NCBI GenBank assembly: GCA_023701245.1
Contig: JAMPXK010000001.1
Location: 23-64,022 of the forward strand
DNA length: 64,000 nucleotides
DNA from: Elusimicrobiales bacterium
GTDB lineage: Bacteria > Elusimicrobiota > Elusimicrobia > Elusimicrobiales > UBA9959
Direction of reading: 5' to 3'
The translations under genes were made by a program, and so were the position numbers. Below, one piece after another: positions 1 through 16,636 of this stretch (position 1 is the first letter of the stretch; every line of letters starts with the position of its first letter). The notes beneath the pieces were generated by a model that worked only from the letters and a program-made list of their open reading frames with translations, did no database searches and was not told the origin of the DNA.

Positions 1-264
1 AAGCTCATCCTGGGCCCGGTGTTCAGCGTGATGGCCCCCGGCGGCGAAACGCTGGCGCTGGTGAAGCCGCAGTTCGAACTGCAGGCCGCGGACCTGCGCC
101 GCGGGATAGTTAAGGACGAAGCTACGCGCCTGGGCGTCATGGACGGGATGCGCGCCTTCCTGAAGGAAAGCCTGCCCGTAGTGAAAGAACTGGGGCTTAC
201 CGACTCGCCCATAAAAGGCGCGAAAGGCAACCTGGAATTCCTGTGGTACCTGAAAAAGAAATAG
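1..264 (+). CDS. tlyA: TlyA-family rRNA 2'-O-methyltransferase/hemolysin, C-terminal fragment (5' end outside window)
   Basis: Frame 1 is open from nt 1. C-terminal signature LVKPQFE...SPIKGAKGNLEFL is typical of TlyA/FtsJ-like proteins. Stop TAG at 262-264. Confidence 0.75.
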   Translation, partial: KLILGPVFSVMAPGGETLALVKPQFELQAADLRRGIVKDEATRLGVMDGMRAFLKESLPVVKELGLTDSPIKGAKGNLEFLWYLKKK

Positions 265-1394
265 CCGGCGGCAGGCCCGGGCCCGCCTGCGTGGTCTGGG
301 AACTTACCCTGGCCTGCAATTTGAAATGCCTGCATTGCGGCTCTACCGCCGGCGGCCGGCGCGCCGCCGAGCTTTCCCCGGCGGAGGCGCTGGCCCTTTG
401 CGAGGACTTTAAACGCGCCGGCGCGCGTGGCGTGGCGCTGATGGGCGGCGAACCGCTGCTCCGGAAAGATTTTTTCGGGATCGCGGCCAAGGTGCGGGAA
501 CTTGGCATGGAGCTTTCGGTCATTACCAACGGCACCGTGCACGGCGAAGAGGTTTTCTCCCGGCTGGCGGCGCTGAAGCCGCGGGCCGTGGCCGTGAGCC
601 TGGACGCCGCCGACCCGGCGCTGCACGACAGGATACGCGGCGTGCCCGGGTCTTTCCAAAAAACCAGACTCTTCATGGAGCGCTGCCTGGCCGCCGGGCT
701 GCCGCTCAGCGTGATCACTACCGTCCACAAGCTGAATATAAAGGAACTCCCCGCTTTGCGGGACCTGCTCAAGGGGCGCGGCATAGCCTGGCAGGTACAG
801 ACCGCCGGCGGCGAAGGGGGGCGTTTTTCCCGCGAGCTGCTGCTGGACCGGGAGGAGTTCTACTCGGTGGGCATGTTCGTGGAGGCCTGCCGGCGGGAAT
901 ATCCACCGGAAGAATTGCCGGTCATCGGCGCGCATGACCTGGGCTATCATTCCCTGCTGCTCAAGAACGTTTCGCTGTACGAAAAGTGGGAAGGCTGCCA
1001 GGCCGGCGTTTCGGTGGCCGGCGTGCGCAGCGACGGGGGCGTGCTGGGCTGCCTGGCCATCAATGACGACAGATTCCTGGAAGGGAACGTCCGCGAAAAG
1101 AGCTTTACGGAGATCTGGAACGCCGCGGGCGGCTTCGCCTATACCCGCGGCTTTACCCGGGCCCAGGCGGGGCCCGGCTGTTCGGATTGCGGCCACGCGG
1201 AGTCCTGCCGCGGCGGCTGCAGCGAGATGTCGCTGATGAAGACCGGCCGTCTGCACAACGATCCCTACTGTTTCGCCCGCATAGAGCAGGAACTCTTCCC
1301 GGAAGAGCTGCCCGGCACCCTGCGGCGCCTGGCCGGCCGCGCCGCGGGCTCCTTCGCCCGGCTGGGCCTTTTCTTTTCCGGTAAACGCGGCTGA
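243..1394 (+). CDS. Radical SAM enzyme with C-terminal SPASM-type auxiliary Fe-S domain
   Basis: 383-aa ORF. CNLKCLHCGS is a CxxxCxxC motif near the N-terminus, and GGEPLL is a SAM-binding motif. C-terminal Cys-rich block: CQAG..DGGVLGC...CSDCGHAESCRGGCS...DPYC. The GTG start at 243 overlaps the tlyA stop; exact start uncertain. Confidence 0.85.
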   Translation: MVPEKEIAGGRPGPACVVWELTLACNLKCLHCGSTAGGRRAAELSPAEALALCEDFKRAGARGVALMGGEPLLRKDFFGIAAKVRELGMELSVITNGTVHGEEVFSRLAALKPRAVAVSLDAADPALHDRIRGVPGSFQKTRLFMERCLAAGLPLSVITTVHKLNIKELPALRDLLKGRGIAWQVQTAGGEGGRFSRELLLDREEFYSVGMFVEACRREYPPEELPVIGAHDLGYHSLLLKNVSLYEKWEGCQAGVSVAGVRSDGGVLGCLAINDDRFLEGNVREKSFTEIWNAAGGFAYTRGFTRAQAGPGCSDCGHAESCRGGCSEMSLMKTGRLHNDPYCFARIEQELFPEELPGTLRRLAGRAAGSFARLGLFFSGKRG

Positions 1395-1413
1395 TTTTTC
1401 ATAGAATATCCAC

Positions 1414-2253
1414 ATGCTGATAGTGGCGGGCTCTAAAGCGTACGATGAGGCCGAATGGCTGCTCTCCAACGGGGCGGCCGAGGTCTATTGCGGCGTGCCG
1501 GGCCTGCCCAACCACCGCGACGCGGACCAATGCCTGAAAGACGACGGCGAGTTCGTGAGCATCGCCAAAATGGCCAGGGCCAAAGGGCGTCGGGCGCTGC
1601 TGGCCATGAACGAGGCTTGTTTCGAAGAGGATTATCCCGTGGTGGCGGCCCGGGTAAAAGCCATATTGAAGCAGTGCAAAGTCCCGGTCATAATCCGCGA
1701 ACTGCCGCTGCTGCATTATCTTCGCAAGAACGGCGTGAAGGCTGAGTTCATCATCAGCAGCCTTTCGCTGGTCTTCAATTCCAGGGCGCTGGAATATTAC
1801 AAGAACCTCGGCGTGAAACGGGTCATCCTGCCTTTCCACCTTATGCCTTACGAGGCCGGCCGGATAATAGGCAACCGTTTCGGCATGGAGACCGAGATCT
1901 TTTTTCACGCCGATTTCTGCTGTCCCAATATGGACCCGGCCTGCCGGCTGGACGGCTGGCTTAAGTCCTTCCAGGTCTGCCGTTTTCATTATACTTCCAG
2001 CGGCAAAGCCCACCGCATGCCCGAGGCCAATGTGCCCCAGAAGCTGGACATGGTCTATGACGCTTTCCACGCCGGAATCGACTACCTGAAGATCATCCGC
2101 GTTACCGATTTCAAAGACCAGCAGGAAGTGCTCAGGGAAGCCAGGGTAATGCTGGCCCTGCTGGAGAAAGGCGTGTCCCGAGAAGATTTCAGGAAGTTGG
2201 GCGAGAAGCTCTATTTCTCCGTCTCGCGACACGGCGGGAGGACCGGCCGATGA
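1414..2253 (+). CDS. Peptidase-U32-family protein, UbiU-like (module 1, subunit A1)
   Basis: 279 aa. Layout matches U32/UbiU as I recall it: GAAEVYCG near the N-terminus, KRVILPF, then ETEIFFHADFCCPNMDPACRL resembling the U32 signature. Cys169/170/177/189 are conserved with paralog A2. Confidence 0.7.
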   Translation: MLIVAGSKAYDEAEWLLSNGAAEVYCGVPGLPNHRDADQCLKDDGEFVSIAKMARAKGRRALLAMNEACFEEDYPVVAARVKAILKQCKVPVIIRELPLLHYLRKNGVKAEFIISSLSLVFNSRALEYYKNLGVKRVILPFHLMPYEAGRIIGNRFGMETEIFFHADFCCPNMDPACRLDGWLKSFQVCRFHYTSSGKAHRMPEANVPQKLDMVYDAFHAGIDYLKIIRVTDFKDQQEVLREARVMLALLEKGVSREDFRKLGEKLYFSVSRHGGRTGR

Positions 2254-2957
2254 AGCCCGAAAGCGCCCTGCAGTTGAGCGCGCCCGCCCTGCGGGCCGCG
2301 GCTCCCGCCGCGCTTAAGAAGCACGGGCTCCTGTATCTGGGCGACGAGTTCTGTCAGAACCTGGTGCCTTCGCCCGAAGATTTCGCCCTGGCCCTGCGCA
2401 AATTTCCCGGCCGTGTGGTCCTGGTGACGCCGCTGCTCACCGACGCCGCTTTCGACTCCGTAGAAGCGATCGTTAAAGCTCACTCTTCCCCGCGCCGCCG
2501 CCTGGAGGTGGTGGTCAACGACCTGGGCCTGCTGCATACGTTCAAGGCCCGCTATTCACACCGGGTGCTGGTTTCGCTAGGCCGGGTTTTCGCCCACAGG
2601 GTGAAGGTGATGCCGCGCAAGTTCGCCGCCGGTTTCCTTAAAGAACACAATGTGAAGCGCGTGGAGCTCGACGACCCGGCGCTGCTGCCGCGTTTCGAAG
2701 GCCTCGGCCTGAAATTCTCCTTTCATACGGGATTCCGCTACGTGTCCGTCACCCGCTTCTGCCCGTGGGAACTGCATTGGCCCGGTGCCTGCGGCCATGC
2801 CTGCTCCGGGCGGGTCAAAAAGCTGGAGCACCCGCGCCTCCCAGCCCCGCTGTTCCTGAGAGGGCAGGCTTACGGCCTGAAGACCGGCGCCGCGCCGAGC
2901 CACCCGGCCATAAACAGGCTGGTGCGCGAACCCCTTCCTGCCGGGGGCCGCAAATGA
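2250..2957 (+). CDS. Peptidase-U32-family protein, UbiV-like (module 1, subunit B1)
   Basis: 235 aa. ATGA overlap with A1. LLYLGDEFC resembles the UbiV VIYLGEAVC region, followed by NDLGLL. Four Cys (35, 171, 181, 185) lie in the RFCPWE..W..ACGHAC context. Confidence 0.6.
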   Translation: MKPESALQLSAPALRAAAPAALKKHGLLYLGDEFCQNLVPSPEDFALALRKFPGRVVLVTPLLTDAAFDSVEAIVKAHSSPRRRLEVVVNDLGLLHTFKARYSHRVLVSLGRVFAHRVKVMPRKFAAGFLKEHNVKRVELDDPALLPRFEGLGLKFSFHTGFRYVSVTRFCPWELHWPGACGHACSGRVKKLEHPRLPAPLFLRGQAYGLKTGAAPSHPAINRLVREPLPAGGRK

Positions 2958-3799
2958 AAACCGTGGTGGGGGTTAAGACCTACGACGAAGCGGCCACTAT
3001 GCTGCGCCTCGGGGCCGACGAACTTTACGGCGGGCTGGCCGCCATTCCCAACCACCGCCTGCCCGCCCAGTCCTTCCAGTCCATGGACGAGTTGAAGGCC
3101 GCGGTGCGGCTGGCGAAAAAAATGGGCCGGCGCTTCTCGCTGCTGGTCAACCAGCCTTCCTTCGGGACCAGGTATAAGAAAACTCTGGCCGTGGCGCAGG
3201 AGCTGGACTCCCAAGGCCTGGGCGCCTGCATAGTGCGCGAACTGCCGATGCTGGAAAGCCTGCGCGCCCTGAAGCTGAAGGCGCGGCTTACGGTCAGCAG
3301 CCTCGCACTTTGCTTCAACCTGCCGGCCATGCGCAGGTACAAGCAGTTGGGCGCTTCACGGGTGGTGCTCCCTTTTCAACTGCTGCCGTCCGAAGCGGCG
3401 CCGCTGATAAAGAACCCCTACGGGCTGGAGACGGAGGTGTTCTTCCACGCCGATTTCTGCTGCGCCAATATAGACCCGGCCTGCCGCCTCTGGAACCTGA
3501 CGCACCGGGACCAGACCTGCCGCTTTTCCTACAAGGGCCCCGGCGGCCGCTGGCGCATGCCCGAGGCCAATGCCCGGGAAAAGATGCGCGCCGTCTACGG
3601 CTTTTACCACAGCGGGGCGCAGTACCTCAAGATCATCCGTATGAACGATTTCGCCGAGGAGCTGGAAGTCTTCAAGTTCGCCCGCATCATAGACCGCCTG
3701 CTCAAAAAAGGCCAGTCCGAGGAGGAGTTCTGCCGGCTGGGGGAAAAACTTTATTTCACCGTATCGCGGCACGCGAGGAGCGCATGGAAAAAGCGCTAG
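2954..3799 (+). CDS. Peptidase-U32-family protein, UbiU-like (module 2, subunit A2; paralog of 1414-2253)
   Basis: Internal ATG at 2954 forms an ATGA overlap with the B1 stop. The 281-aa product aligns end to end with A1 (PNHR, RELP, SSL.L.FN, ETEVFFHADFCCANIDPACRL, RMPEAN, YLKIIR, LGEKLYF.VSRH). The upstream part of the 2765 ORF overlaps B1 and is Arg/Pro-rich junk. Confidence 0.7.
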   Translation: MKTVVGVKTYDEAATMLRLGADELYGGLAAIPNHRLPAQSFQSMDELKAAVRLAKKMGRRFSLLVNQPSFGTRYKKTLAVAQELDSQGLGACIVRELPMLESLRALKLKARLTVSSLALCFNLPAMRRYKQLGASRVVLPFQLLPSEAAPLIKNPYGLETEVFFHADFCCANIDPACRLWNLTHRDQTCRFSYKGPGGRWRMPEANAREKMRAVYGFYHSGAQYLKIIRMNDFAEELEVFKFARIIDRLLKKGQSEEEFCRLGEKLYFTVSRHARSAWKKR

Positions 3800-4470
3800 C
3801 GCTGGAGGCCTGCGGGCCCGAAGATATACGCGCCATCCCCGCCGGGTGTAAGGCCGTGGTGATAGGTTCGGAATTCTGCTCCGGCCTGCTGCCGGCCCCG
3901 GCGCAGGCCCGCGCCCTGAGGCAAGCCTTTAAGGGCAAGATAGTACTGGCCACCACGCTGCTGACGCAGGCCGCGCTTGAAAAAGCAATTGCGCTGGTAA
4001 AGATAATTTCAACGGGCGGGCCCGCCGGGGTTATAGCTAACGACCTGGGCCTGCTGGAAGCGCTGCGCGCCCGAAAGAAATCCCCGCCGGTGAACTGCGG
4101 CCGCATCCTGGCGCACCGGGTGAAGATCATGCCGGAGGCTTACGCTAAGGATTTCCTCGCCCGCTATCGCATCGCCGGGTTCGAAGCGGACGACGCCGCC
4201 ATACTCAAGCGGCTCGAACCTTACGGCCTGCCTTTCTCCTGGCATTACCCTTTCCGTTACGCCACCGTCACGCGGTTCTGCCCCTGGGAGAACCGCTGGG
4301 CCGAAGGCTGCGGCCGCTCCTGCCTGGGGCGGGCCCGCAAGTTAACGAGCCCGAGGCTGCCCGGGCCGCTCTGGCTGCGCGGCTGCGCCTACTTCGTGAA
4401 AGGCAACGCCCCGCGGCGCGGCTCGGCGCGCAGCGTGTATACGCCGCCGGCGGCCAAAAATGAAATATAA
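3784..4470 (+). CDS. Peptidase-U32-family protein, UbiV-like (module 2, subunit B2; paralog of 2250-2957)
   Basis: ATG at 3784 (16-nt overlap with A2). The 228-aa product aligns with B1 (GSEFC, NDLGLL, HRVKIMP, TVTRFCPWENRWAEGCGRSC). Cys32/166/176/180 have the same 10/4 spacing as B1. Confidence 0.6.
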   Translation: MEKALALEACGPEDIRAIPAGCKAVVIGSEFCSGLLPAPAQARALRQAFKGKIVLATTLLTQAALEKAIALVKIISTGGPAGVIANDLGLLEALRARKKSPPVNCGRILAHRVKIMPEAYAKDFLARYRIAGFEADDAAILKRLEPYGLPFSWHYPFRYATVTRFCPWENRWAEGCGRSCLGRARKLTSPRLPGPLWLRGCAYFVKGNAPRRGSARSVYTPPAAKNEI

Positions 4471-5446
4471 ACTGAACCTGGGCTGCGGCTATAACCGCCT
4501 GGAAGGCTGGCTCAACCTGGACGCCAGCCCGGAGTCCGCGGCCGACCGGCTGATGCCGGCGCATGACCTGGCCTTCCCGGACGGGTCGGCCGCAGTGGCG
4601 CGGGCCGCGCAGCTGATTGAACACCTGGGCTTTTTTAAAGCGAAATTTTTCCTGTCCGAGTGCTGGCGCGTGCTGGAAACAAACGGCCGGCTGGAACTGG
4701 AGACTCCTGATATAGAAAAAACTTTCAGGATCTTCCTGGCCGGCGGCCACGCGGTGAAAGAAGCGGCGCTGGGCTGGGTTTACGGTTCTGAAACCCCCGG
4801 GATGAACCACCTGTACTGTTTCCCCGCGGCCCTGCTGGAAGAACTGCTGGCGGAAGCCGGTTTTTCCGCCATTAAAACGGAGGAATTCCTGTTCCAGCCT
4901 GCGCGCCCCGCGCTGCGCCTGGAGGCCGTGAAGAAGGAGTGCGAGCAGGCGGCCCTGAACGCCGCCCTGCGCCGCCGCCTGCTGGACGAGGGGACAGCTG
5001 TTTTCTCCGACGAGGAGACCAGCGCCGGCCTGGACCAGGCCATCCGCAGGCTTACCGCCTGCGGCGGAAAGCCCGGGGCCGCTCTGGAGGCCGCGCTTTG
5101 CAGCGCTCCCGCCGCGCTGGCCTATTTTTCCATAACGCAGGAGAACGAACATCACCAGTCTGCCGAGGCGGCCGCCTGCGCCCGGCTTTGCGGCTGGCGG
5201 CTGCAGGGCAGGCTGGCCGCGGCTTATGCAGGCGCGCTGGCCGGCGGTCTTGACGAGGAAAAGGCTTTCGCCGCCGCCCTGGCTGCCGGCCGGCAGATCC
5301 TGGCCGCGGCCCTCGCCGGCGCCGCGCAGGCGCCGGGGCCCGAACCGGCGGCCGGCGCCCCCGGAGCGTTCACGCCAGGGGCCGCCCGCGCCTGGGCCTT
5401 CCGGCGTAAATACGGCGAAACGGGGGATTTGCGGGGGGCAGGGTAA
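4460..5446 (+). CDS. Class I SAM-dependent methyltransferase with ~170-aa Ala-rich C-terminal extension
   Basis: 328 aa. N-terminal LNLGCG motif I-like, FPDGS, VLETNGRLELETP (Methyltransf_11/23-like). The C-terminal half is low-complexity Ala/Leu-rich and helical-looking. The start overlaps B2 by 11 nt. Confidence 0.7.
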   Translation: MKYKLNLGCGYNRLEGWLNLDASPESAADRLMPAHDLAFPDGSAAVARAAQLIEHLGFFKAKFFLSECWRVLETNGRLELETPDIEKTFRIFLAGGHAVKEAALGWVYGSETPGMNHLYCFPAALLEELLAEAGFSAIKTEEFLFQPARPALRLEAVKKECEQAALNAALRRRLLDEGTAVFSDEETSAGLDQAIRRLTACGGKPGAALEAALCSAPAALAYFSITQENEHHQSAEAAACARLCGWRLQGRLAAAYAGALAGGLDEEKAFAAALAAGRQILAAALAGAAQAPGPEPAAGAPGAFTPGAARAWAFRRKYGETGDLRGAG

Positions 5447-5471
5447 ATATTATACGCTTTAGAAATGGAAG

Positions 5472-5498
5472 GGGCGGGCCGTTGTGCCGCCCTTTTTT
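5472..5498 (+). terminator. Rho-independent terminator after the methyltransferase gene
   Basis: GGGCGG / CCGCCC stem (about 5472-5477 / 5487-5492) followed by TTTTTT at 5493-5498. Confidence 0.6.
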
Positions 5499-5559
5499 GT
5501 TTTAGCGCTCGTAAAATACCGGAACTTGTTTCCGGATATACATCACAGGAGAAACTACA

Positions 5560-5748
5560 ATGAAGAAAACGCTGATATTCGCCCTTCCCCTGGTGGCCCT
5601 CATGCTGGCCGCCGCCTGCAAGAAGCAGGAGGCCGCCCAGCCTGAAGCCCCTGCTCTCGAGCAGGTGGCCGGCACCGCTTCCGAGGCCGCGCCCGCCGCT
5701 GCCCCGGCCGCTGCCCCGGCCGCTGCCCCGGCCAAGACCGGGAAGTAA
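5560..5748 (+). CDS. Small lipoprotein (62 aa) with AAAP repeats
   Basis: AGGAG SD 9 nt upstream. MKKTLIFALPLVALMLAAAC is a signal peptide plus lipobox (LAAAC). Flanked by terminators on both sides. Confidence 0.65.
   Translation: MKKTLIFALPLVALMLAAACKKQEAAQPEAPALEQVAGTASEAAPAAAPAAAPAAAPAKTGK
5695..5733 (+). repeat. Perfect 12-bp tandem repeat (GCCGCTGCCCCG x3 plus partial) inside the small lipoprotein gene
   Basis: Read directly: units at 5695-5706, 5707-5718 and 5719-5730, encoding (AAAP)n. Confidence 0.9.
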
Positions 5749-5767
5749 GCCGCTGCCAGGACTGAAT

Positions 5768-5799
5768 GCCGGCGCCGTTCGCGGCGCCGGCTTTTTTTT
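5768..5799 (+). terminator. Rho-independent terminator
   Basis: GCCGGCGCCG (5768-5777), loop TTCG, CGGCGCCGGC (5782-5791), then T8 (5792-5799). Confidence 0.85.
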
Positions 5800-5866
5800 G
5801 CTCTCAAAATTGATTAGACTATTCTTTCGGACGGCGCAGGCGCCGCCGCGGCGGAGGGGTAAACTC

Positions 5867-6169
5867 ATGAGAAAACTTTACGAACTAGGGGCGAAGACCG
5901 GCCTGGACAGGGCCGAAGTGAACCGGATAGCCAAATTCGGCGTGCTGGGGCTGCTGGCCCTGGGCCTGGCTTCGCTGGCCGCCTGTTTCAAGGCGCAGAA
6001 GCCGGCGGAGCCCGCTGCCTCCAAACCTACGCTCCAGGACCTGGTCAACTCGGTCAACGCCAGTACCGATACTTCCAAGCCGCAGGATAATTGCGGCCCT
6101 TACCCCGGGTATCCCTGCGGCACGCGTTATTACACGGTCAGCCGCGGCGATTTCAGGAGGCAGGCATGA
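5867..6169 (+). CDS. Hypothetical lipoprotein (100 aa)
   Basis: ATG at 5867 is preceded by GGAGGGG. Hydrophobic segment FGVLGLLALGLASLAAC has a lipobox. An in-frame GTG at 5918 would give a more canonical signal peptide, so the start is uncertain. Confidence 0.55.
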   Translation: MRKLYELGAKTGLDRAEVNRIAKFGVLGLLALGLASLAACFKAQKPAEPAASKPTLQDLVNSVNASTDTSKPQDNCGPYPGYPCGTRYYTVSRGDFRRQA

Positions 6170-7110
6170 ACTTTTTTCTTAAATCCCTGGCGCTGGTGTT
6201 CCTGCTTTGCAGCCAGGCCGGCGCGCTGGACTGTCCCCGCGGCGAAGAAAAGGCCGAGGACTGCCCCTGGGCCGGCGCCGCGCGCCTTCTGACGGAACGC
6301 GCCGAAAAAAAAGAACCGCTGGAACCGGTCTTTTCGGCGCAGCTGCCCGGCCTGCTGCGGCAGCTGGATATGGACCGCGCCTCCCCGGCGCTGCAGCTCT
6401 GGGGCGAGAGCATAAATTTCGACGAACTGGCCAAAGGCACCATAGTGCACCCAGGGATACTGGAGTTCCTTTCCTCCCGCCTGGGCGCGCCCCAGCCGAA
6501 GGGCAGGATAGCGCACGCCGGCCTGGAGCATACCTACGGGTATCTTTTCAGCCTGCTGCCCACCAAGTTCGGCTTCAAGCGCGCGCGCTGGGTGCGCCCC
6601 GACATAGAGGACGGCCTGGGCCTGCCGCGCGGCAGCGCCGGCCCCGCTCCCTCCGAGGGTACGCTGCTGGCCAATATAACCTGCCTGGCCGGGGGCATAG
6701 CGCTCAAGGACGACCCCGCCGCCGCGGCCCTGCTGCAGCGGATGGCGCCGTATTGCGGTTCCGCCGTGCGGGCCTACGCCGCGCGGCCGCTGAAGCGCGG
6801 CCGGCTCACCGAGGAAGTTTCCCTGCCCGGCGGGCGCCAGGTGACACTGCGCACCGATTTCGCTCCCTTCAAAGCCGTTTACGGCGGCAATACCCACCTG
6901 CTGGTCTATTCCGTCTACGATTCCGCCATCCGCCGGGCCTACCTGGTGACGGCCTTTCCCGTGAACGCGGGTTTTGTGAACAACGCGCTTTCGCCTTCCG
7001 GCCTGGGGGCCGGCAAGCCGGTGCAGACGCGCTATAACGCCCACGTGGAAGGGCTTACCGGCGCCGGCAAGCTGAAGGGCAGCAGGACCGTTACGATCAT
7101 AGAACAATGA
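6166..7110 (+). CDS. Secreted hypothetical protein (314 aa)
   Basis: ATGA overlap with the upstream gene. N-terminal signal peptide MNFFLKSLALVFLLCSQAGA. No family recognised. Confidence 0.6.
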   Translation: MNFFLKSLALVFLLCSQAGALDCPRGEEKAEDCPWAGAARLLTERAEKKEPLEPVFSAQLPGLLRQLDMDRASPALQLWGESINFDELAKGTIVHPGILEFLSSRLGAPQPKGRIAHAGLEHTYGYLFSLLPTKFGFKRARWVRPDIEDGLGLPRGSAGPAPSEGTLLANITCLAGGIALKDDPAAAALLQRMAPYCGSAVRAYAARPLKRGRLTEEVSLPGGRQVTLRTDFAPFKAVYGGNTHLLVYSVYDSAIRRAYLVTAFPVNAGFVNNALSPSGLGAGKPVQTRYNAHVEGLTGAGKLKGSRTVTIIEQ

Positions 7111-8597
7111 GAAAAGCCGCGCTGCTGCTGCCGCTGCTGCTCTCCGGTTGCGGCGGCTATTATTCCGTAAGGGTGCCGTACAACCTGCCTGACATGCCAG
7201 GGGCCGCCTCCGCGCGGCCGGCCCTTTCTTCCCTTTACCTCAAGGTGGTTACGGCTCCGCCGGAGCCTGACAACGCGCTGGGCGCGCTGGCCGGGGCCCT
7301 GATGAACCGCCAGGGGCCGGAGTTCAGGCCTTCCGAACTGGGGCGGCAGGCGGCCAAAGCGCTGAACCGGCCCGGGGCCCGGGTCTGTGCCTGGCGCGTG
7401 GACAAGACCGGAGGAGAGGACCCGTTCACCGCGGGGCTCAAGCCCGCCGGCCTGCTGAAGGTGGAAGCGCTGCCGCCGTCCGTCTCCTCGAAGAAAGAGG
7501 AACGCTCCACGGTCTATTACAACAAGAAGAAACAGGCCCAGACCGTGAAGAATAAGGTCTGGGCCTATTCCGCCTCTTTGTACGCCAAAGTGGCGCTGTA
7601 TGCCCTGCCGGCCATGGAAGAGCTTGATTCCTGGTCCGATACTTTTTCTTTCACGGAAGACCGCCTGGATAATTCCAAGGACGCCGGGGACTGGTACGCG
7701 GACAACGAAGGCAAACTCTATTCCGCGCTGACGGCCAGGCTGACCGGCCGCTACGCGGGCCGCCCGGTAGAAAGAGTGCGGCCCCTGTTCGCCGTGAAGA
7801 AGGATAAGGAGTCCGAAGAGGCGCTGAAACTGGCCCAGCGCAACAGCTGGAACCAGGCTGAGGAGGTCTGGGCCAGGCGGGCCAAGGCCGCCGGCGGCTG
7901 GCGCGACCACCTGGGGCTGGCCGTAGCCGCCGAGCTGAAGAAGGATTACGCCTCCGCCGGAGAACATTACCGGCTGGCGCAGGCGGCCGGCGGGTCCGAC
8001 AAGGACGCCAGATTCGTGCGCTGGGCGGAGATCTTCCGCGACCTGGAAATTTTTTCCTCTACCGCGGCGGCCGGGCGCTGCGGCGGCGAGTGGTTCGGGC
8101 GCCGCACGGCGCTGCTGCCGTTCACGGACCAGACCACCAGCCTGGACGGGCCGCCTCTGGTGCGCGGCCTGGTCTACGAGAGTCTGAAGGCCGCGGGCTA
8201 TGACCTTGTCCCTCTGGAGGAGACCGACGAGACGCTGCGGCGCCGCGGCTTCTCCGACGGCGGCCAGCTGGCGGCCGCCAAGCCGGCGGATATCGCGGCC
8301 TGGCTGGGCGCGGACCGGCTGATCTATTGCGATATCAGCGATTTCGGCGAGATCATGGCCGGCGTCTATAACCGGCGCATGGTGAAAGGGTCGGCCCGCA
8401 TCTGGGAAGCCGGCGCCGGTGAGCTGTCTTTCGAGGAAAGCGTGGTGAAAGTGAAGACGCCCAAGAGTTTCGCCGCCGGGCTATTTACCCAGCTGGCCAA
8501 GGGCCTGGCCGAGCGCATCAAGAACAAACCGCTCGCCTATGAGTCGGCCCTCTTCGCCCGCCAGCTCACCGAAAACCTCCCCAACCTCTCAAAATAA
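7107..8597 (+). CDS. Lipoprotein (496 aa) with C-terminal DUF799/GNA1162-like region
   Basis: ATGA overlap with the upstream gene. MRKAALLLPLLLSGC lipobox. The C-terminal block LLPFTDQT...GYDLVPLEE...LGADRLIYCDISDF resembles the DUF799 lipoprotein pattern from memory. Confidence 0.6.
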   Translation: MRKAALLLPLLLSGCGGYYSVRVPYNLPDMPGAASARPALSSLYLKVVTAPPEPDNALGALAGALMNRQGPEFRPSELGRQAAKALNRPGARVCAWRVDKTGGEDPFTAGLKPAGLLKVEALPPSVSSKKEERSTVYYNKKKQAQTVKNKVWAYSASLYAKVALYALPAMEELDSWSDTFSFTEDRLDNSKDAGDWYADNEGKLYSALTARLTGRYAGRPVERVRPLFAVKKDKESEEALKLAQRNSWNQAEEVWARRAKAAGGWRDHLGLAVAAELKKDYASAGEHYRLAQAAGGSDKDARFVRWAEIFRDLEIFSSTAAAGRCGGEWFGRRTALLPFTDQTTSLDGPPLVRGLVYESLKAAGYDLVPLEETDETLRRRGFSDGGQLAAAKPADIAAWLGADRLIYCDISDFGEIMAGVYNRRMVKGSARIWEAGAGELSFEESVVKVKTPKSFAAGLFTQLAKGLAERIKNKPLAYESALFARQLTENLPNLSK

Positions 8598-8621
8598 TCC
8601 CCCGTAGTCCGCGGGTTCGCG

Positions 8622-8771
8622 GGTGCCGAGGGTATGCCTGCCTCGGGCACGGGGTCGGAAACACCGTTGCCGCCCCTCCTCACACTGCGGTGTCGCTTCG
8701 CTCCACTCGCCCCTCGCGCTGCGCAAGCTCGGGGCTGCGCGAAGGCCCGAGGCAGGCATACCCTCGGTACC
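8622..8771 (-). repeat. Palindromic intergenic repeat element, copy A (inverted relative to copies B and C)
   Basis: Terminal inverted repeats GGTGCCGAGGGTATGCCTGCCTCGGGC / GCCCGAGGCAGGCATACCCTCGGTACC. The interior reverse-complement matches copy C over a 66-nt stretch with one mismatch. Confidence 0.9.
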
Positions 8772-8800
8772 CGCTCCGGTTATTCGGCCTGCCGGGGGGG

Positions 8801-10081
8801 TTAGTCCCGCTCGAAGACCAGGAGAGTTTCGGAGTGGGGGGTGTTGGGGTAGAAGTCGAAACCGGCGGCGCGGATGATCTTGTACTTTTCCAGGAAGAAG
8901 GCCGCGTCGCGGCCCTGCGTGATGGGGTTGCAGGACAGATAGATGACGCGCTTGGGCAGGATCTCCATGATCCGCTTTATCACCTTGGTATGCAGGCCCG
9001 CGCGCGGCGGGTCCAGCACCAGGATGTCCGTCCCCTCGAAGAGGTCGTCCTTCATCTTCTCTGAGAGCGAGCAGACCATCTCGAAGTTCTTGGCGCCGAG
9101 GTCCTTGGCGTTGAGGGCCGCGTATTTGGAGGAGCTTTCGGAAGCCTCCACCGCCAGCACCTTGCCTGCGAGGTCGCGCAGGTGCAGGCCTATCACGCCC
9201 ACGCCGGAATACAGGTCCACCAGCTTGCCGCATTTAAAGGACGCCGCGCGGATCTCCTTGAGCGCTTCGGCGAGCAGTTCCATATTGTTCTGGAAGAAGC
9301 AGTCGAAGCCGTAATAGAATTTGTCGCCGAGGATCTCCTCGGTCACGAATTCGCGCCCCCAGGTCTTCAGTATTTCGTCCACCTGGCTGACCGAACTGAT
9401 GGGGTTGGAATAGATGGCCAGGAAGCCGTCCACGCCTTCCACCTGCATGTCCGGCAGCTCTATGTCCCGGCGCTTCATGAACAGCGCGGCCACGCGCGAG
9501 CCGGGGTTCTTGGCCTCGCGGATCACCAGCGTCTTGAGGTCGGCCGTGGACAAGTTAAGGGAATTCAGGATCTTCAGGATCTTGCCGGCCGCGGCGTTGG
9601 CCTCGGGGCTTATAAGGGCGCAGCCTTCGGGCAGCAGGTATTTTTCGCGGAAGTTGCCGCGCTTGTGGAAGGCGAAGGACAGCGCGCCCGGTTCGCCGGT
9701 GAAACTGTACTCTATCTTGGTGCGGTACCCGAAGGTCTTTTGGGCTCCGTAGAACTTATCCAGCCTTATGGTCTCCTTGGTGGTCTGGTACAGCAGGTCC
9801 TCTATCAGTTCCTTCTTGGTCTCGCACTGGAAAGGGTAGTCCATGACCTGCCAGGGCGAGCAGCTCAGGTAATGGTCCTCTTTCGGGGCCACGCGTCGGG
9901 GCGACGGTTTGATGATCTCCAGCAGTTCCGCTTCCGCGAAGTTCTTTTTTTCGAAAGTGGTCCGGACCCTGGCGGTCTCTTCCGGCAGGACGCCGTAGCA
10001 GAAGACCACCTTGCCTTCGCTCCGGCCCAGGGCTTTGCCCTCGCCTACTATTTTCTTGAATTCGAGTGTTATTTCACGCAT
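8801..10081 (-). CDS. TRAM-domain RNA (uracil-5-)-methyltransferase, TrmA/RlmD family
   Basis: ATG at 10081 (MREITLEF...). DLYSGVGVIG motif I, VLDPPRAGL motif IV, catalytic YLSCNP. The longer 475-aa ORF start lies inside the divergent promoter region. Confidence 0.85.
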   Translation of the reverse strand: MREITLEFKKIVGEGKALGRSEGKVVFCYGVLPEETARVRTTFEKKNFAEAELLEIIKPSPRRVAPKEDHYLSCSPWQVMDYPFQCETKKELIEDLLYQTTKETIRLDKFYGAQKTFGYRTKIEYSFTGEPGALSFAFHKRGNFREKYLLPEGCALISPEANAAAGKILKILNSLNLSTADLKTLVIREAKNPGSRVAALFMKRRDIELPDMQVEGVDGFLAIYSNPISSVSQVDEILKTWGREFVTEEILGDKFYYGFDCFFQNNMELLAEALKEIRAASFKCGKLVDLYSGVGVIGLHLRDLAGKVLAVEASESSSKYAALNAKDLGAKNFEMVCSLSEKMKDDLFEGTDILVLDPPRAGLHTKVIKRIMEILPKRVIYLSCNPITQGRDAAFFLEKYKIIRAAGFDFYPNTPHSETLLVFERD

Positions 10082-10115
10082 AAAAATCGCCTGTTTGCCC
10101 GCGCCGTTTGTTTTA

Positions 10116-10121
10116 TATACT
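10116..10121 (+). promoter_or_regulatory. Putative -10 hexamer TATACT, 9 nt upstream of ATG 10131
   Basis: AT-rich island (TTTTATATACTACATTTAGA) in a GC-rich context between divergent genes. No SD between the hexamer and the ATG. Confidence 0.3.
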
Positions 10122-10130
10122 ACATTTAGA

Positions 10131-11279
10131 ATGGCGCAACTGCAACAGAAACTTGTCGCGTTCATGGGGAAGGAATTCCCCAGGCGGGTCGCCTTCGCGC
10201 TGGCCGCCTCCGCTTTTATCCTCAACATAGCGTCCTGCTGGGACGTTTACCGGCACGAGCCCCTGCGGGAGGCGGCGTCCAGGTCGCTTTTCGCCGCCAA
10301 TTCCTCTTTTTTCTTCGATTCCGGCCTGGCGGAGCCGGTTCCGGTCTTCGCGCTTAAGGCGGCCATGGCCTTTGGCGCCGACCCCGACGCCGCGCTGCGG
10401 GTGGAAGGCCTGATAGTTTTCGCGCTGCTGGGGCTGGTTACCATGTTTTGCGTCAGGCGCCGCCTGGGCGAGACGGCCGGCGTCATGGCAGGGCTTTTCC
10501 TCGGGGCCAACCCGTACTTCGGCTATTACGCCATCCAGGGCGCGTCCCATCTTTACGCGCTGCTGTTCCTGGTCCTGTTCTGGTATTATTTCGACGTTGA
10601 AGGCGGCGGCCGCCGCGAGGCCCTGCTGGCAGGCCTGGCCGGGGGGCTGGCCTGCCTTTCCCGCCTGGATTCCGCCTGGGTACTGCTCCTTATCGCGGTC
10701 TTTTCCTGGGTCCTCCGGCGAGGCGCTTTCGGCCTGAAGCGGGCGGCGCTGTCGCTGGGGCTGGCGCTGCTGCTGACCGCGCCGTACCTGGCCTGGCAGC
10801 AGGCGAAATACTCCAACCTGTTCTACGCCCAGGAATTAAGCCTCCGGCGCTGGAGCAATATAGACAGCTACGGCTACGCCCCCGGCGCCCCGTACCAGGC
10901 GGCGCCGCTGGGCGCCGCCGGCTTCGTTTTCCGCAACGGCGCGGCCGGGGCCACGCGTTCTTTTTTCAGCGGGCTGGGCCGGGCCTTCGCCTACGAACTG
11001 CCGCGCGCGGTCTACTACAAATTCCTTTTCGTACTGATCTTCCTGGGCGTCTACGCGGCCGTTACCCTCAAGAAGGACCCGCCGCTGTTCTTCCTCGCCG
11101 CGGCGCTGCTGCCGGTGCTGCCGCTGGCGGACATCAAACAGGTGCCGGCCGCCGGGGGCATAGAACTCCGGTATTATCTGGCGGCCGTCTGGGCGCTTTT
11201 CGCGCTGGCCGGCCTTGGTTTCCAGGAAATACTCGCCTGGCTGGAACGGACCCTCGCCCGCGCCGCCGCTAAAAAATAA
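10131..11279 (+). CDS. Polytopic membrane protein, GT-C fold (ArnT/PMT_2, GT39/83-like) glycosyltransferase
   Basis: 382 aa from ATG 10131. Many hydrophobic helices. Pattern resembles the other two ArnT-like proteins in the window. Confidence 0.5.
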   Translation: MAQLQQKLVAFMGKEFPRRVAFALAASAFILNIASCWDVYRHEPLREAASRSLFAANSSFFFDSGLAEPVPVFALKAAMAFGADPDAALRVEGLIVFALLGLVTMFCVRRRLGETAGVMAGLFLGANPYFGYYAIQGASHLYALLFLVLFWYYFDVEGGGRREALLAGLAGGLACLSRLDSAWVLLLIAVFSWVLRRGAFGLKRAALSLGLALLLTAPYLAWQQAKYSNLFYAQELSLRRWSNIDSYGYAPGAPYQAAPLGAAGFVFRNGAAGATRSFFSGLGRAFAYELPRAVYYKFLFVLIFLGVYAAVTLKKDPPLFFLAAALLPVLPLADIKQVPAAGGIELRYYLAAVWALFALAGLGFQEILAWLERTLARAAAKK

Positions 11280-11296
11280 AAAAGGACTACTGGACC

Positions 11297-12244
11297 ATGA
11301 ACGGGAGAAACAAATACAAATTCATAGCCGCCGTGGCCGCGCTTTTCCTGGTGCCCTTCCTGATATTGAGCCGGCATTTCATCTACGGCGAAAGGGAACT
11401 GGAGAAGAAGGACGTGCTGCGCTACCTGGAACTGAGGACCCTTACCGGGGCGGGGATAATTTCGGACGTGCTCAATCTCAACTACAGCCTTTCCCGCCTG
11501 ACCGCGTCGGCCAAGGGCCGCGAAGGCGTCCGCGCCGAACTGCAGCGCCGGGTAAAAGAGAATCCCTTCATCTATTCCGAACTGGCCCTGCTGGGGCCTT
11601 CCGGTTCCGAACTGGCCAGGTACTCCGCGGAGAAAAGCGTGAAAGCGCGCCTGGAGTACGCCAAGAGCCAGGTTTTTGCCGAGGCCAGGCAGGCGGGAGG
11701 GGCCGCGGGCGCGGTGGAATACGGCGAATATACCCCGCCGGCCCTGGTGCTCTGCGAAGCGCGCCCCGAGGGCGCCAAGCCGGAGTATTACCTGGCCGGG
11801 CGCCTCAGCCTGGCCTACCTGGGCGAAGTTGTGCGCATGATGGGCAAGAATTCCTCCGGTAATTTCGGCCTGGTGGACGGCGGGGGGCAGATCATCGCCG
11901 ACTCCATGAGCATGTCCATAGTAAAGCCGGGGCTCAAGGCCCCGCCGGAAGTGGTAAAAATGCTTTCCGTGGCCCTGGAAAGGGCCGACGACAATTTTTC
12001 CAGCGAGGTGTATTTCCGCGGGCGCGTCTACCTGGTCTCTGTTTCCGCCGTTGGCGGGACCAGGTGGTGGATGTATGAGATCATGGACGCGGCCGACATG
12101 CCTTCCCGCCGGGCTTCGGCCTGGGCCGTGCGGGTCGTGGTTTCCGGGATACTGCTGATACTTGCCTTCAGCGTACTTACCTGGCTGCTCGCCCTGCGCT
12201 GGCTGAAAGACGGGCCGCCGCCGGCTTCTGGGTCTTTAGGGTAA
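11297..12244 (+). CDS. Membrane-anchored Cache-like extracytoplasmic domain protein without output domain
   Basis: 315 aa. N-terminal TM (FIAAVAALFLVPFLIL) and C-terminal TM (VVVSGILLILAFSVLTWLLAL). The middle region contains a FGLVDGGGQIIADS-type Cache motif. Confidence 0.5.
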   Translation: MNGRNKYKFIAAVAALFLVPFLILSRHFIYGERELEKKDVLRYLELRTLTGAGIISDVLNLNYSLSRLTASAKGREGVRAELQRRVKENPFIYSELALLGPSGSELARYSAEKSVKARLEYAKSQVFAEARQAGGAAGAVEYGEYTPPALVLCEARPEGAKPEYYLAGRLSLAYLGEVVRMMGKNSSGNFGLVDGGGQIIADSMSMSIVKPGLKAPPEVVKMLSVALERADDNFSSEVYFRGRVYLVSVSAVGGTRWWMYEIMDAADMPSRRASAWAVRVVVSGILLILAFSVLTWLLALRWLKDGPPPASGSLG

Positions 12245-12301
12245 ATTCCCGGGGGCCCTTGTTCACTTGCGCCGCCCTGCGGCGCGTGGTATACCTCTAT
12301 A

Positions 12302-14260
12302 ATGGGTTTTTTCCGCCTCCTTTACGGCCTGCTCCCGCTGCTGCTGCTGTCCTCCCGGCTGTTCGCCGGGCCGGAAGCCGACAGGGCGGCCGCGGGCGCG
12401 CTTTTTGACGGGGCGCTGCCTCTGGCCCCTCTGCCGCAGGCCGACGGCGACAAGGCCGGCGCGGAAACGCAGTTCCTGCTCCAGATGAAGGAAGTGCTTT
12501 CCTCAGGCGCCTGGGACGGCGCGTCGCCCCAGCTGCGCCACTTCGTCTTCAGGAACCGGGAGGAAGGCTGGACCGCGCAGGCCCAGAGCGTGGGACTGGA
12601 AGGTTTCCTCTGGACCAAGAAAGAGCTGGAGGGCAAATACGGCGCCGCCGCTTTTGCCGGCCAGACCGGGGATTATTTCGCTTACCTTGACGCCCTGCTG
12701 CAGCCTGTGCCCTGGACGGGCGACCTGCGCCGGGCGCTGGCGGACCTTAAGGCCTCGCCGCTGCCGGAGGCGGACAAGAACGCCCGCCTGAACCTTATCC
12801 TGGAAAATTATGTGGCGGGCCTGCAGGCCAACATGGAGCGCTACGACCTGGCGGCCTGGGCCAAAACGGCCCGCATCTACGAGCTTTTTCCCCGCGCGTA
12901 CAACCTGGCGGGGCGCCGCGGCGCCGGGCCCGCTTCCGGTCCCGGCGGGACCCGGTTCTTCCGGGATTTCAAGGCCGCGGATTTCGAGGTGATAAAGCGC
13001 ATGGGGTTCGACGCGGTCTGGCCCATGGGCATCCTGCCCATAGGCGTGCGCGGCCAGACCGGCACCGGCGGCGGTTCGCCCTATTCCATCAGCGACCACG
13101 CCACGGTTAACCCCGACCTGGGCACCGAGGAGGAGTTCCGCGGCTTCGTGAAAGAGGCGCACAAGGCGGGCCTGAAGGTGATAGTGGATTTCGTGGTGAA
13201 CCACACCTCGCTGGATTCCAGGCTGCTGGCCGAGAACCACGACTATTTCGTCAGCTACCGCTACGACGGGGCCTGCGCGCCGGACTATTTCGACGTGCGC
13301 TGGAACGGCTCCAAGTACTGCGTGCACCACGGCGGGTTCGAATACGGCGGCGGCGTGTCCAGCTGGATCGACACCGCGCAGGTCAACTACGCCAACAGGA
13401 ACCTGCGCGAAAAAATGACCGCCATAGTGAAGAACTGGGTAACCAGGTTCGACGTGGACGGGTTCCGCGTGGATATGGCGTACCTGGCGCTGAACAACGT
13501 TTTCGCCCGCACCTGGCAGAAGAGCATGCCCCGCGAGGAATTCTACCGGCAGCTCATCTGGACGGTGAAAGCGGCCAAGCCTTCGGCGGCTTTCATGGCC
13601 GAGGCTTACGCCTACCAGGAGGACCTGGCGGCGTGCGGGTTCGACACCATCTACAGCAAGCACGAACAGGCCCGCCCCGAGGGCCAGACCGGCTGGTACA
13701 ACGCCTCCGAATCCGGGGACCCGGCGGCCATACAGAGTTCCCTGAACCGCCAGGCCTTCCTGGCCTGGCAGGCGGGTGGCGCGGGGTCGGTCCTGTTCAC
13801 GGGCAACCACGACGAGGCCGCCCCGGAGAAGGTTTACGGCCGCCGGCTGCCGGCGGCGCTGGCCCTCACTTTCCTCTATCCCGGCGCGGTGCTGATGTAT
13901 TCGGGCGCGGAAATAGGCTACGACGCGGCCGTGCCCGCCGAACATAAACCGCTGCCTTTCAGCGTTCCCTGCGAGATCGACTGGAACGGGGGGGACGCGC
14001 AGATAAAGAAAACTTACCAGGAAGTGCTGGCCCTGGCCGCCAGGGTGCGTGCGGAACTGGGCGACTACAGCATAGAGCCCCTCTGGCCGGGTCCAGGCCA
14101 GGCCTGGGCCGGCTACACGCTGAAGTCCAGGACCGTTCCCGGCCTCAGGAAGGCCGTCATCGGCAACGTTACCTGGAACGCCACCCGGGCCGACCTGCCG
14201 CAGGCCGGGTTTTCCGGCACCCTCCAGCCGGGGGAGTACAGGGTTTTAGACCTCCGCTGA
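12302..14260 (+). CDS. Secreted alpha-amylase-family (GH13) glycoside hydrolase
   Basis: Signal peptide MGFFRLLYGLLPLLLLSSRLFA. GH13 regions VDFVVNHTS, GFRVDMAY, MAEAYAY, FTGNHDE. Confidence 0.85.
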   Translation: MGFFRLLYGLLPLLLLSSRLFAGPEADRAAAGALFDGALPLAPLPQADGDKAGAETQFLLQMKEVLSSGAWDGASPQLRHFVFRNREEGWTAQAQSVGLEGFLWTKKELEGKYGAAAFAGQTGDYFAYLDALLQPVPWTGDLRRALADLKASPLPEADKNARLNLILENYVAGLQANMERYDLAAWAKTARIYELFPRAYNLAGRRGAGPASGPGGTRFFRDFKAADFEVIKRMGFDAVWPMGILPIGVRGQTGTGGGSPYSISDHATVNPDLGTEEEFRGFVKEAHKAGLKVIVDFVVNHTSLDSRLLAENHDYFVSYRYDGACAPDYFDVRWNGSKYCVHHGGFEYGGGVSSWIDTAQVNYANRNLREKMTAIVKNWVTRFDVDGFRVDMAYLALNNVFARTWQKSMPREEFYRQLIWTVKAAKPSAAFMAEAYAYQEDLAACGFDTIYSKHEQARPEGQTGWYNASESGDPAAIQSSLNRQAFLAWQAGGAGSVLFTGNHDEAAPEKVYGRRLPAALALTFLYPGAVLMYSGAEIGYDAAVPAEHKPLPFSVPCEIDWNGGDAQIKKTYQEVLALAARVRAELGDYSIEPLWPGPGQAWAGYTLKSRTVPGLRKAVIGNVTWNATRADLPQAGFSGTLQPGEYRVLDLR

Positions 14261-14329
14261 CCGATTTGCTATAATTGACGTGGGGTAGTATTCACAAGTT
14301 TTAAAGATCAGCGATCACAGAGAGAGGCC

Positions 14330-15826: not shown

Positions 15827-15846
15827 ACCGTTCTGAAGGTTCTGAA

Positions 15847-15872
15847 GGCCGGCCCTGCAGCCGGCCTTTTTT
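15847..15872 (+). terminator. Rho-independent terminator
   Basis: GGCCGGC (15847-15853) / GCCGGCC (15860-15866) stem followed by T6 (15867-15872). Confidence 0.8.
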
Positions 15873-15874
15873 AT

Positions 15875-16603: not shown

Positions 16604-16636
16604 ATCCCCCCGGATACTCGCGCTATTGCCCGGCCT

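Follow-up and report, generated by a model that had tools for sequence, protein, structure and literature searches.

Known U32 hydroxylases and a doubled two-gene cassette

The experimentally studied U32 proteins that we found, namely UbiU-UbiV, TrhP and RlhA, are linked to O2-independent, prephenate-dependent hydroxylations of aromatic or heteroaromatic carbons (PMC6747719, PMC6599085, PMC10990095). In the literature that we found, the experimentally linked roles of the family are the hydroxylation of ubiquinone and of RNA only, and most U32 subfamilies are without known function (PMC10990095). In E. coli, UbiU and UbiV (YhbU and YhbV) are encoded by adjacent genes, the large subunit before the small one, and prephenate serves as the oxygen donor of the pair (PMC10990095). 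The cluster ligands are C169, C176, C193 and C232 in UbiU and C39, C180, C193 and C197 in UbiV, where the first cysteine lies far upstream of the remaining three (PMC6747719). The iron-sulfur (Fe-S) motif of the family has been described as CX6CX15CX3/4C-like, with CX6CX16CX38C in UbiU and CXnCX12CX3C in UbiV (Pelosi et al. 2019). TrhP (YegQ), TrhP1-TrhP2 (YrrO-YrrN) and RlhA (YdcP), for their part, are needed for the prephenate-dependent formation of 5-hydroxyuridine at position 34 (ho5U34) and of 5-hydroxycytidine at position 2501 (ho5C2501), and the residues E162/C170/C177 of TrhP and E161/C169/C176 of RlhA are essential (PMC6599085). Here, we describe a stretch of 64,000 nucleotides (nt) from an uncultured Elusimicrobia bacterium (contig JAMPXK010000001.1, positions 23 to 64,022; the whole stretch is called the window in the following), which carries two genes for a UbiU-like large subunit (A) and two for a UbiV-like small subunit (B) in the order A-B-A-B.

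The four genes lie on the plus strand and follow each other as A1 (1414-2253, 279 amino acids), B1 (2250-2957, 235 amino acids), A2 (2954-3799, 281 amino acids) and B2 (3784-4470, 228 amino acids), such that, as in ubiU-ubiV, each gene for a large subunit is followed by one for a small subunit. ATGA overlaps are found at the A1/B1 and B1/A2 junctions, A2 and B2 share 16 nt, and B2 shares 11 nt with a methyltransferase gene. A1 and A2 align from end to end without a gap (128 of 274 residues identical, 47%, E value 1e-87), and B1 and B2 are identical at 99 of 215 positions (46%, E 7e-58). The end-to-end paralogy of both subunits that a preliminary description of the locus had noted is thus borne out. 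The cysteine positions and open reading frame (ORF) placements that it quoted for the four proteins were all correct, and the UbiU and UbiV ligands that it named agree with the published work (PMC6747719). The nearest public relative of the source organism is GWA2_62_23, in which the four A and B proteins have 78-91% identity with their counterparts in the window, and no further A or B paralogues were found elsewhere in the window.

We consider it probable, if by no means certain, that this cassette encodes two U32-superfamily enzymes, paralogous to each other and each composed of two subunits, a UbiU-like A and a UbiV-like B protein. Each subunit would probably hold one [4Fe-4S] cluster on four cysteines. 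In B, the predicted ligands follow the UbiV pattern, with one cysteine after the first beta-strand and a CX9CX3C motif, and in A three of the putative ligands match UbiU C169, C176 and C232, the fourth being a local, vicinal C169. By analogy with UbiU-UbiV, TrhP and RlhA, the pairs would most likely hydroxylate an aromatic or heteroaromatic carbon in an O2-independent, prephenate-dependent manner. A tandem duplication of the A-B unit appears to have occurred in this lineage of Elusimicrobia, after which neither copy was lost. As purifying selection has preserved both, the pairs probably differ in their site of action or in their substrate, or else they form a single A1B1A2B2 assembly. Finally, the cassette would be a self-contained unit that sits inside an unrelated operon of radical S-adenosylmethionine (SAM) enzyme, methyltransferase and small-protein genes. 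New here are the ligand mapping of A, the B partner family, the lineage-specific duplication, the composite nature of the operon and the leads towards protein substrates.

The UbiU-like large subunit

Both A proteins are matched by the Pfam U32 model PF01136 (38.5 bits for A1 and 42.3 bits for A2, cut-off 22.4), with the match spanning the N-terminal part of the model alone (positions 11-96 for A1 and 6-107 for A2 of 233). They thus have the U32 domain in common with TrhP, RlhA and the TrhP1-TrhP2 pair (YrrO-YrrN) of Bacillus. In NCBIfam, their best match is UbiU (NF047963), with 39.0 bits for A1 and 32.5 bits for A2, far below the cut-off of 440, and the TrhP model (NF011996) gives 26.1 and 30.5 bits as compared to a cut-off of 534. 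In a comparison of profiles, an A-family profile of 61 sequences aligns with E. coli UbiU over 259 columns (probability 99.3%, E 9e-21). As judged from these scores, A is a clear yet distant homologue of UbiU that falls outside the UbiU, UbiV and TrhP orthologue groups.

A2 has C169, C170, C177 and C189, and A1 has the same four cysteines and four more. In A1, they are held by the loop FFHADFCCPNMDPACRL...QVCRF, and E161 is conserved as well. Across 23 sequences, the family pattern is CCX6CX11C, with C170, C177 and C189 invariant and C169 conserved in at least 90%. In the profile alignment, C170 of A corresponds to UbiU C169, C177 to UbiU C176 and C189 to UbiU C232, whereas UbiU C193 lies inside a UbiU insertion of 44 residues that is absent from A. 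The missing insertion accounts for most of the length difference between the two proteins, A being 52 residues shorter than E. coli UbiU; the shorter length of both A and B had been correctly pointed out before. In place of the C193-bearing insertion, A has its vicinal cysteine pair, and C169 is likely to stand in for the missing ligand. Hence, all four cysteines in B (see below) superpose on the UbiV ligands and three of four in A on the UbiU ligands, and for UbiU C193 the extra C169 of A may substitute. With CCX6CX11C in A and CX135CX9CX3C in B, both subunits display a four-cysteine pattern as it is described for U32 Fe-S proteins. Furthermore, E161, C170 and C177 of A agree in residue type, and nearly in number, with the three that are essential in TrhP and RlhA, a comparison made by numbering and not by alignment.

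The cysteine loop varies among relatives of A. The homologue P0084, which is 43% identical, lacks C169 and has gained a cysteine three residues past C177. In paralogous cassettes (described below), A has at least four cysteines, but at shifted positions, and the counterparts of C177 and C189 alone are fixed. Over the region of A1 residues 156-196, the primary cassette type reads CC..C..C, the second type reads FC....C...C(.C)....C and has no vicinal pair, and the third type differs again. This suggests that Fe-S ligation in the large subunit is flexible, with two cysteines fixed and two variable in position.

An AlphaFold2 (AF2) model of A1 has a pLDDT of 82.7. Among the matches listed in a structure search, the highest template modeling (TM) scores (0.52/0.58) were obtained with the U32 structure 5d88, which ranks 41st by E value. 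This protein, the U32 peptidase Mk0906 from Methanopyrus kandleri, likewise has a TIM-barrel-like beta/alpha domain. In contrast to the A-B pairs, it is a single subunit; it is 12% identical to A1, and the 50 best matches of the B1 model do not include it. Sequence searches of the PDB with A1, B1, UbiU and UbiV returned nothing significant.

The UbiV-like small subunit

B1 contains four cysteines and no more, C35, C171, C181 and C185, and B2 contains C32, C166, C176 and C180 plus four others. The four cysteines of B1 are invariant across 30 homologues, in which few other positions are invariant, and the invariant cysteines of the family fall within the motifs G-x-EFC, VVND-G and TR-C. No database model that we used recognizes these proteins. 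B1, B2 and nine homologues are without a Pfam match, including U32, at E values up to 1, and B1 and B2 have no NCBIfam match at the same threshold, which includes the UbiV model NF047965 (cut-off 275). PADLOC matched neither A nor B.

A relationship becomes visible when profiles are compared. The B profile (176 sequences) aligns with the A/U32 profile (61 sequences) over 195 columns with a probability of 92.8% and an E value of 4e-7, which argues that B is a divergent member of the U32 superfamily. Against an alignment of the UbiV family, the B profile gives an E value of 3.6e-4 over 224 columns. In this alignment, C35, C171, C181 and C185 of B1 fall on UbiV C39, C180, C193 and C197, such that B and UbiV have in common one N-terminal cysteine followed by a C...CX3C arrangement. 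The UbiV profile is a shallow one, because it was built from close relatives only (the homologues listed are all at least 73% identical, nearly all of them at least 85%). The N-terminal GDEFC/GEAVC match recurs when UbiV is used as a single sequence. When a small B alignment is compared with UbiV or UbiU as single sequences, the E values are 0.03-0.08, which is too weak to be used alone. B is 57 residues shorter than UbiV. Taken together with the A-UbiU match, these comparisons uphold the earlier designation of A as UbiU-like and of B as UbiV-like.

The AF2 model of B1 has a pLDDT of 91.8 and consists of alternating beta and alpha elements followed by C-terminal beta strands. A fold search with this model found generic TIM barrels alone (TM about 0.4), and no specific PDB neighbor was among the matches listed.

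The B family is sizeable. A profile search over 1.84 billion representatives recovered 2,105 clusters (at 50% identity) at E values up to 1e-3 and 1,534 at E values up to 1e-10. In 43 of 46 loci that were fetched, a U32 gene adjoins the B gene on the same strand. These B loci span Elusimicrobiota, Omnitrophota, Planctomycetota, Lentisphaerota, Thermodesulfobacteriota, Nitrospirota, Bacillota, Altiarchaeota and other groups. B can thus be regarded, from sequence and gene neighborhood, as a large family of UbiV-like partners that is recognized by none of Pfam, NCBIfam and PADLOC. Because B nearly always adjoins a U32 gene, two-subunit U32 enzymes would be far more common than annotation implies. 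In two of the loci (L004, positions 9222-11754, and L028, the latter from a metagenome-assembled genome (MAG) of Nitrospirota), a gene of the TP_methylase (tetrapyrrole methylase) family is followed by a B + U32 pair in B-A order.

Tandem duplication and selection

UbiTUV has been reported from the proteobacterial range, whereas the unit in the window is doubled in tandem and occurs in Elusimicrobia. The A-B-A-B arrangement is kept in eight orthologous loci (L002 and L006-L011 among them). In four of these genomes, there is a second A-B-A-B cassette (L013, L015, L017 and L019), which has about 35% identity with the first. The cassettes of L012 and L014 also belong to this second type, and a third type is found in L016, L020 and L021.

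In neighbor-joining trees of A, the bootstrap values are 91 for the A1 clade, 90 for the A2 clade and 82 for A1 and A2 together. The corresponding values for B are 100, 100 and 90, in a tree calculated with capped distances and an outgroup that is closer than UbiV. Groupings across cassettes, i.e., of A1 with the first A or of B1 with the first B of the second cassette, have a bootstrap of 0. This argues that the A-B unit was duplicated in tandem after the cassette types had separated. Within the second cassette, a duplication of its own is supported for A (83%) and stands at 19% for B.

A comparison of the window with L007 gives ratios of nonsynonymous to synonymous substitution rates (dN/dS) of 0.11 for A1, 0.13 for B1, 0.13 for A2 and 0.23 for B2. 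All four genes are thus under purifying selection, and both copies are old and maintained, which fits non-redundant roles of the two pairs. With separate orthologue clades for every copy (bootstrap 90-100) and dN/dS ratios of 0.11-0.23, the preliminary description was right in holding that the second pair is not a recent, redundant copy. In L006, a third pair consisting of a 319-amino-acid U32 protein and a 277-amino-acid B-like protein is transcribed divergently (positions 2423-4212, minus strand) between tlyA and the A-B-A-B genes.

Two nested modules in one operon

The cassette is flanked by genes of a different kind. Upstream, on the plus strand, lies the gene for a radical SAM/SPASM enzyme (243-1394, 383 amino acids) with the Pfam domains Radical_SAM and SPASM and a CX3CX2C motif at C25/C29/C32. 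The best solved relative of this full SPASM protein is PqqE (6c8v, E 1e-21). It has no NCBIfam equivalog and is neither HxsB nor HxsC, and the pVip models of PADLOC match it over the radical SAM core region only. Downstream, a gene for a putative class I SAM-dependent methyltransferase follows (4460-5446, plus strand, 328 amino acids), which has an alanine-rich C-terminal half, weak matches to Methyltransf_11/23 and no PDB relative at E values up to 1. Next come two small genes on the plus strand, one for a lipoprotein of 62 amino acids (5560-5748) with a signal peptide, an LAAAC lipobox and Ala-Pro repeats, and one for a small exported protein of about 100 amino acids (5867-6169). The latter belongs to no Pfam or NCBIfam family, but is found in 35 metagenome loci (L051-L085). 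Its N-terminal leader is conserved (MKKLYELGAKTGL..EVNRIA.FG), a membrane/lipobox segment is present as well, and the C-terminal core, C-GPYPGYPCGTRYYTV, is invariant among 31 aligned sequences.

In 18 of the 35 loci, the radical SAM, methyltransferase, (lipoprotein) and small-protein genes occur in this order without A or B, and tlyA lies upstream in 11 of them. Only L063, which is the same contig as L007, and L072 among the 35 have A-B-A-B between the radical SAM and the methyltransferase genes. Conversely, L006 and L008 carry A-B-A-B after tlyA, but all three of the radical SAM, methyltransferase and small-protein genes are absent from them. L008 is the sister of the group formed by the window and L007 in the trees of A1, A2, B1 and B2. 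Each module thus occurs without the other, which means that neither needs the other and that they are functionally separable. The operon is therefore best seen, on the basis of gene content, as two independent modules of which one is nested inside the other, and not as one pathway. The trio of radical SAM enzyme, methyltransferase and small exported protein looks like a system for the maturation of a peptide or protein that has not been described before, and its substrate is likely to be the small exported protein itself. Because the methyltransferase belongs to this other module, it is not evidence for a pathway of hydroxylation followed by methylation.

Nevertheless, a single pathway has to be weighed, in which A and B hydroxylate tyrosines in the small exported protein, within its invariant CGPYPGYPCGTRYYTV core, alongside the radical SAM enzyme and the methyltransferase. 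In the window, L007/L063, L010 and L072, the radical SAM gene immediately precedes and the methyltransferase gene immediately follows A-B-A-B, with overlapping or 20-nt junctions. The core of the small protein contains four invariant tyrosines, and the closest solved relative of the radical SAM enzyme, PqqE, initiates the synthesis of a peptide-derived quinone. The 18 loci in which the trio does without A and B, and the sister genomes L008 and L006 in which A-B-A-B is retained without a single gene of the trio, make such a joint pathway quite improbable to us. The small exported protein had been inferred as a substrate of A and B from three loci, and this candidate was downgraded when the metagenome scan revealed that the trio usually lacks A and B. 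The 62-amino-acid lipoprotein, whose gene is also kept downstream of A-B-A-B in L006, L007, L008 and L010, was ruled out as a substrate of A and B, as its mature part contains no aromatic residues.

Genomic company of related cassettes and possible substrates

For the two independent A-B pairs, hints to the substrate may come from the neighborhoods of related cassettes. HXS (His-Xaa-Ser, HxsABCD) is an antiphage system of four genes with a periplasmic effector that is matured by radical SAM enzymes, and it has no U32 component (Nat Commun 2026, PMC13128918). Genes for HxsA4 and HxsB lie beside the orthologous cassette L002 and beside the paralogous cassettes L013, L016, L017, L019, L020 and L021. 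In L013, they are confirmed by NCBIfam (HxsA4 71.9 bits, cut-off 55; HxsB 429.9 bits, cut-off 370), and in the remaining loci they were assigned by sequence similarity. The HxsA4 proteins beside the cassettes have about 105 amino acids and end in (SHG)n-SY. Thus, the Hxs clusters with A-B-A-B are a much enlarged version of the HXS system, to which numerous genes for sugar modification and for radical SAM and B12-radical SAM enzymes are added. Hxs genes are absent from the window, whereas related A-B-A-B cassettes lie inside these HxsA4/HxsB clusters.

The same clusters (L013, positions 47-19537; L002, positions 969-12239; L016, L017 and L019-L021) also contain further radical SAM and B12-radical SAM genes together with genes for a DegT aminotransferase and a nicotinamide adenine dinucleotide (NAD)-dependent epimerase. 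Genes for a short-chain dehydrogenase, a polysaccharide deacetylase, a GT28-like glycosyltransferase, a methyltransferase and a carbamoyltransferase-like protein are present there as well. The nitrogenase-paralogue/radical SAM clusters of Elusimicrobia (Meheust et al.) were considered as a related context and set aside, since the paper makes no mention of U32 and ten neighbor families that were scanned gave no Nif-like match.

A second context is provided by a distant relative. In Schinkia azotoformans LMG 9581 (L045, positions 5087-14300), a distant B gene and a full-length U32 gene lie inside a confirmed operon for quinohemoprotein amine dehydrogenase (qhp operon) that comprises qhpC, qhpA, qhpD, a qhpB-like gene, an ATP-binding cassette (ABC) exporter, qhpE and an aldehyde dehydrogenase. 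QhpC (153.7 bits, cut-off 50), QhpA (416.7, cut-off 274) and QhpE (168.6, cut-off 165) exceed their cut-offs, and QhpD (445, cut-off 453) and the QhpB-like protein (94.7, cut-off 223) remain below them. By similarity clustering, the gene families of L045 recur in the MAG loci L032, L035 and L039. The monooxygenase QhpG was not found among the neighboring ORFs of L045 that were scanned. QhpG, which depends on flavin adenine dinucleotide (FAD), is an O2-dependent tryptophan dihydroxylase for a quinone cofactor (PMC7876137). It starts the formation of cysteine tryptophylquinone and is unrelated to the B + U32 pairs in fold and cofactor. The gene context of these pairs, which are distant relatives and not the window genes, suggests that they may perform the task of QhpG in an O2-independent manner. 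Our search of the literature found nothing that joins U32 with quinohemoproteins, and co-mentions of U32, RiPPs (peptides that are made by ribosomes and modified after translation) and radical SAM enzymes concern unrelated topics.

The qhp operon also bears on the old view of U32 proteins as peptidases. The family has historically been annotated as collagenase-like PrtC protease, a name that some A homologues carry as well, and relatives of A and B lie near small proteins that are exported and processed. A and B could on these grounds be taken for U32 peptidases, for instance leader peptidases of neighboring ribosomal peptide systems. Conserved four-cysteine Fe-S motifs, however, mark out the U32 proteins of the hydroxylase type (PMC6747719). 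Moreover, the L045 operon has its dedicated protease, QhpE, and QhpG was not found among the scanned ORFs, which argues that the U32 pair fills the slot of the hydroxylase. A function as peptidases hence strikes us as highly improbable.

A third context hints at prephenate. In L048 (positions 2141-12468), a cassette of the second type has as its neighbor a complete shikimate operon on the opposite strand, chorismate mutase included, and L012 and L015 have gene families of this shikimate context in common with L048. Chorismate mutase is the enzyme that produces prephenate.

With Hxs and qhp contexts recurring in this clade, our best, though tentative, guess at what the A-B pairs act on is an aromatic side chain in an exported peptide or protein of ribosomal origin that undergoes maturation by a radical SAM enzyme. 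It is conceivable, though doubtful, that the A-B-A-B proteins and the wider B family with its U32 partners are generally O2-independent, prephenate-dependent hydroxylases of side chains in such peptides and proteins. Candidate substrates would then be the HxsA4-type repeat proteins and, for the distant pairs of the qhp operons, the tryptophan from which cysteine tryptophylquinone is formed. If this were true, U32 chemistry would extend from quinones and RNA to proteins, and anaerobes would gain a route to protein-derived quinone cofactors. The His-Xaa-Ser clusters, the qhp operons in which QhpG was not found and the operons with shikimate and chorismate mutase genes thus provide leads to the class of substrates.

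Several observations weigh against the two-subunit hydroxylase that we propose, or against parts of it. A and B score far below the orthologue cut-offs of UbiU, UbiV and TrhP, and function can therefore not be transferred by orthology. The match between B and UbiV is weak by itself. One cubane ligated by two adjacent cysteines would be unusual, and the extra cysteines of paralogous cassettes sit elsewhere, for which reason the ligand assignment in A is tentative. The confidence of the AF2 model of A1 is low in the cysteine loop (residues 170-195) and only there. As to the substrate, the Hxs association is seen in only 7 of about 16 cassette loci. In the window, an H-x-S repeat ORF (HxsA-like) is absent from every frame and no qhp gene is among the annotated genes, such that the guess rests on relatives elsewhere.

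An alternative to a peptide or protein substrate is a quinone. The two pairs would in this case be hydroxylases of anaerobic quinone biosynthesis that act on different ring positions of a prenylated phenol or quinone, and the methyltransferase would then O-methylate the hydroxyl so introduced. Among characterized relatives of A, UbiU matches best, both as the top match in NCBIfam and in the profile comparison, the large-then-small gene order is that of ubiU-ubiV, the methyltransferase gene overlaps B2, and ubiquinone synthesis requires three hydroxylations (PMC10990095). Against this stand the scores of A and B, which reach at most 39 bits where the cut-offs of UbiU and UbiV are 440 and 275, B having no UbiV match at all in NCBIfam. 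Furthermore, among the proteins of the operon and just downstream of it that were scanned, there is no match to SCP2/UbiT, to a prenyltransferase (UbiA) or to a decarboxylase (UbiD). The methyltransferase is part of the trio that is found without A and B in 18 loci, and the paralogous cassettes lie in clusters for peptide maturation and sugar modification and, as far as the scanned neighbor families tell, in no recognizable quinone cluster. A quinone substrate thus seems unlikely, and nothing in the gene content appears to tie A and B to ubiquinone.

RNA has to be considered as well, i.e., that A and B are hydroxylases of the TrhP/RlhA type that generate ho5U or ho5C in tRNA or rRNA, with methylation as a possible next step, as with yrrM-yrrN-yrrO of B. 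subtilis. Several features of the locus would agree with this. The cassette follows directly after tlyA, which encodes an rRNA methyltransferase, in the window, L006, L007 and L008. In the window, a partial tlyA-like 3' end (19-264, plus strand) marks the conserved insertion site of the cassette, and a C-terminal TlyA fragment is encoded upstream of it in L006, L007 and L008, with S4 and FtsJ domains in the gene of L006. Downstream, at 8801-10228 on the minus strand, there is an RlmD-like gene for a 23S rRNA 5-methyluridine (m5U) methyltransferase (NCBIfam 180.5 bits, cut-off 183.55). The residues of A match E162/C170/C177 of TrhP in type and numbering, and the formation of 5-methoxyuridine (mo5U) in B. 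subtilis takes two tandem U32 proteins and a methyltransferase (PMC6599085).

The methyltransferase of the window, in contrast to the one beside TrhP1-TrhP2, belongs to the other module. In addition, the TrhP model gives just 26-30 bits as compared to its cut-off of 534, A with its 279-281 amino acids is too short to accommodate a TrhP-like C-terminal extension, and the B partner, as opposed to TrhP and RlhA, is not recognizable to Pfam as U32. The site after tlyA also hosts the trio without A and B, and it therefore looks like a hot spot of insertion and not like a functional link. Other cassettes sit in Hxs clusters or beside shikimate operons, and two cassettes, i.e., four pairs, in surveyed genomes seem excessive for a housekeeping role in RNA modification. 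An RNA substrate is thus quite unlikely in our view.

Further features of the window

With tlyA and the RlmD-like gene, two RNA-modification genes lie near the cassette, which is probably a coincidence. Scans of the window for Rfam families and tRNAs gave no matches. A terminator-like hairpin is found at 5768-5791, 3' of the gene for the 62-amino-acid lipoprotein.

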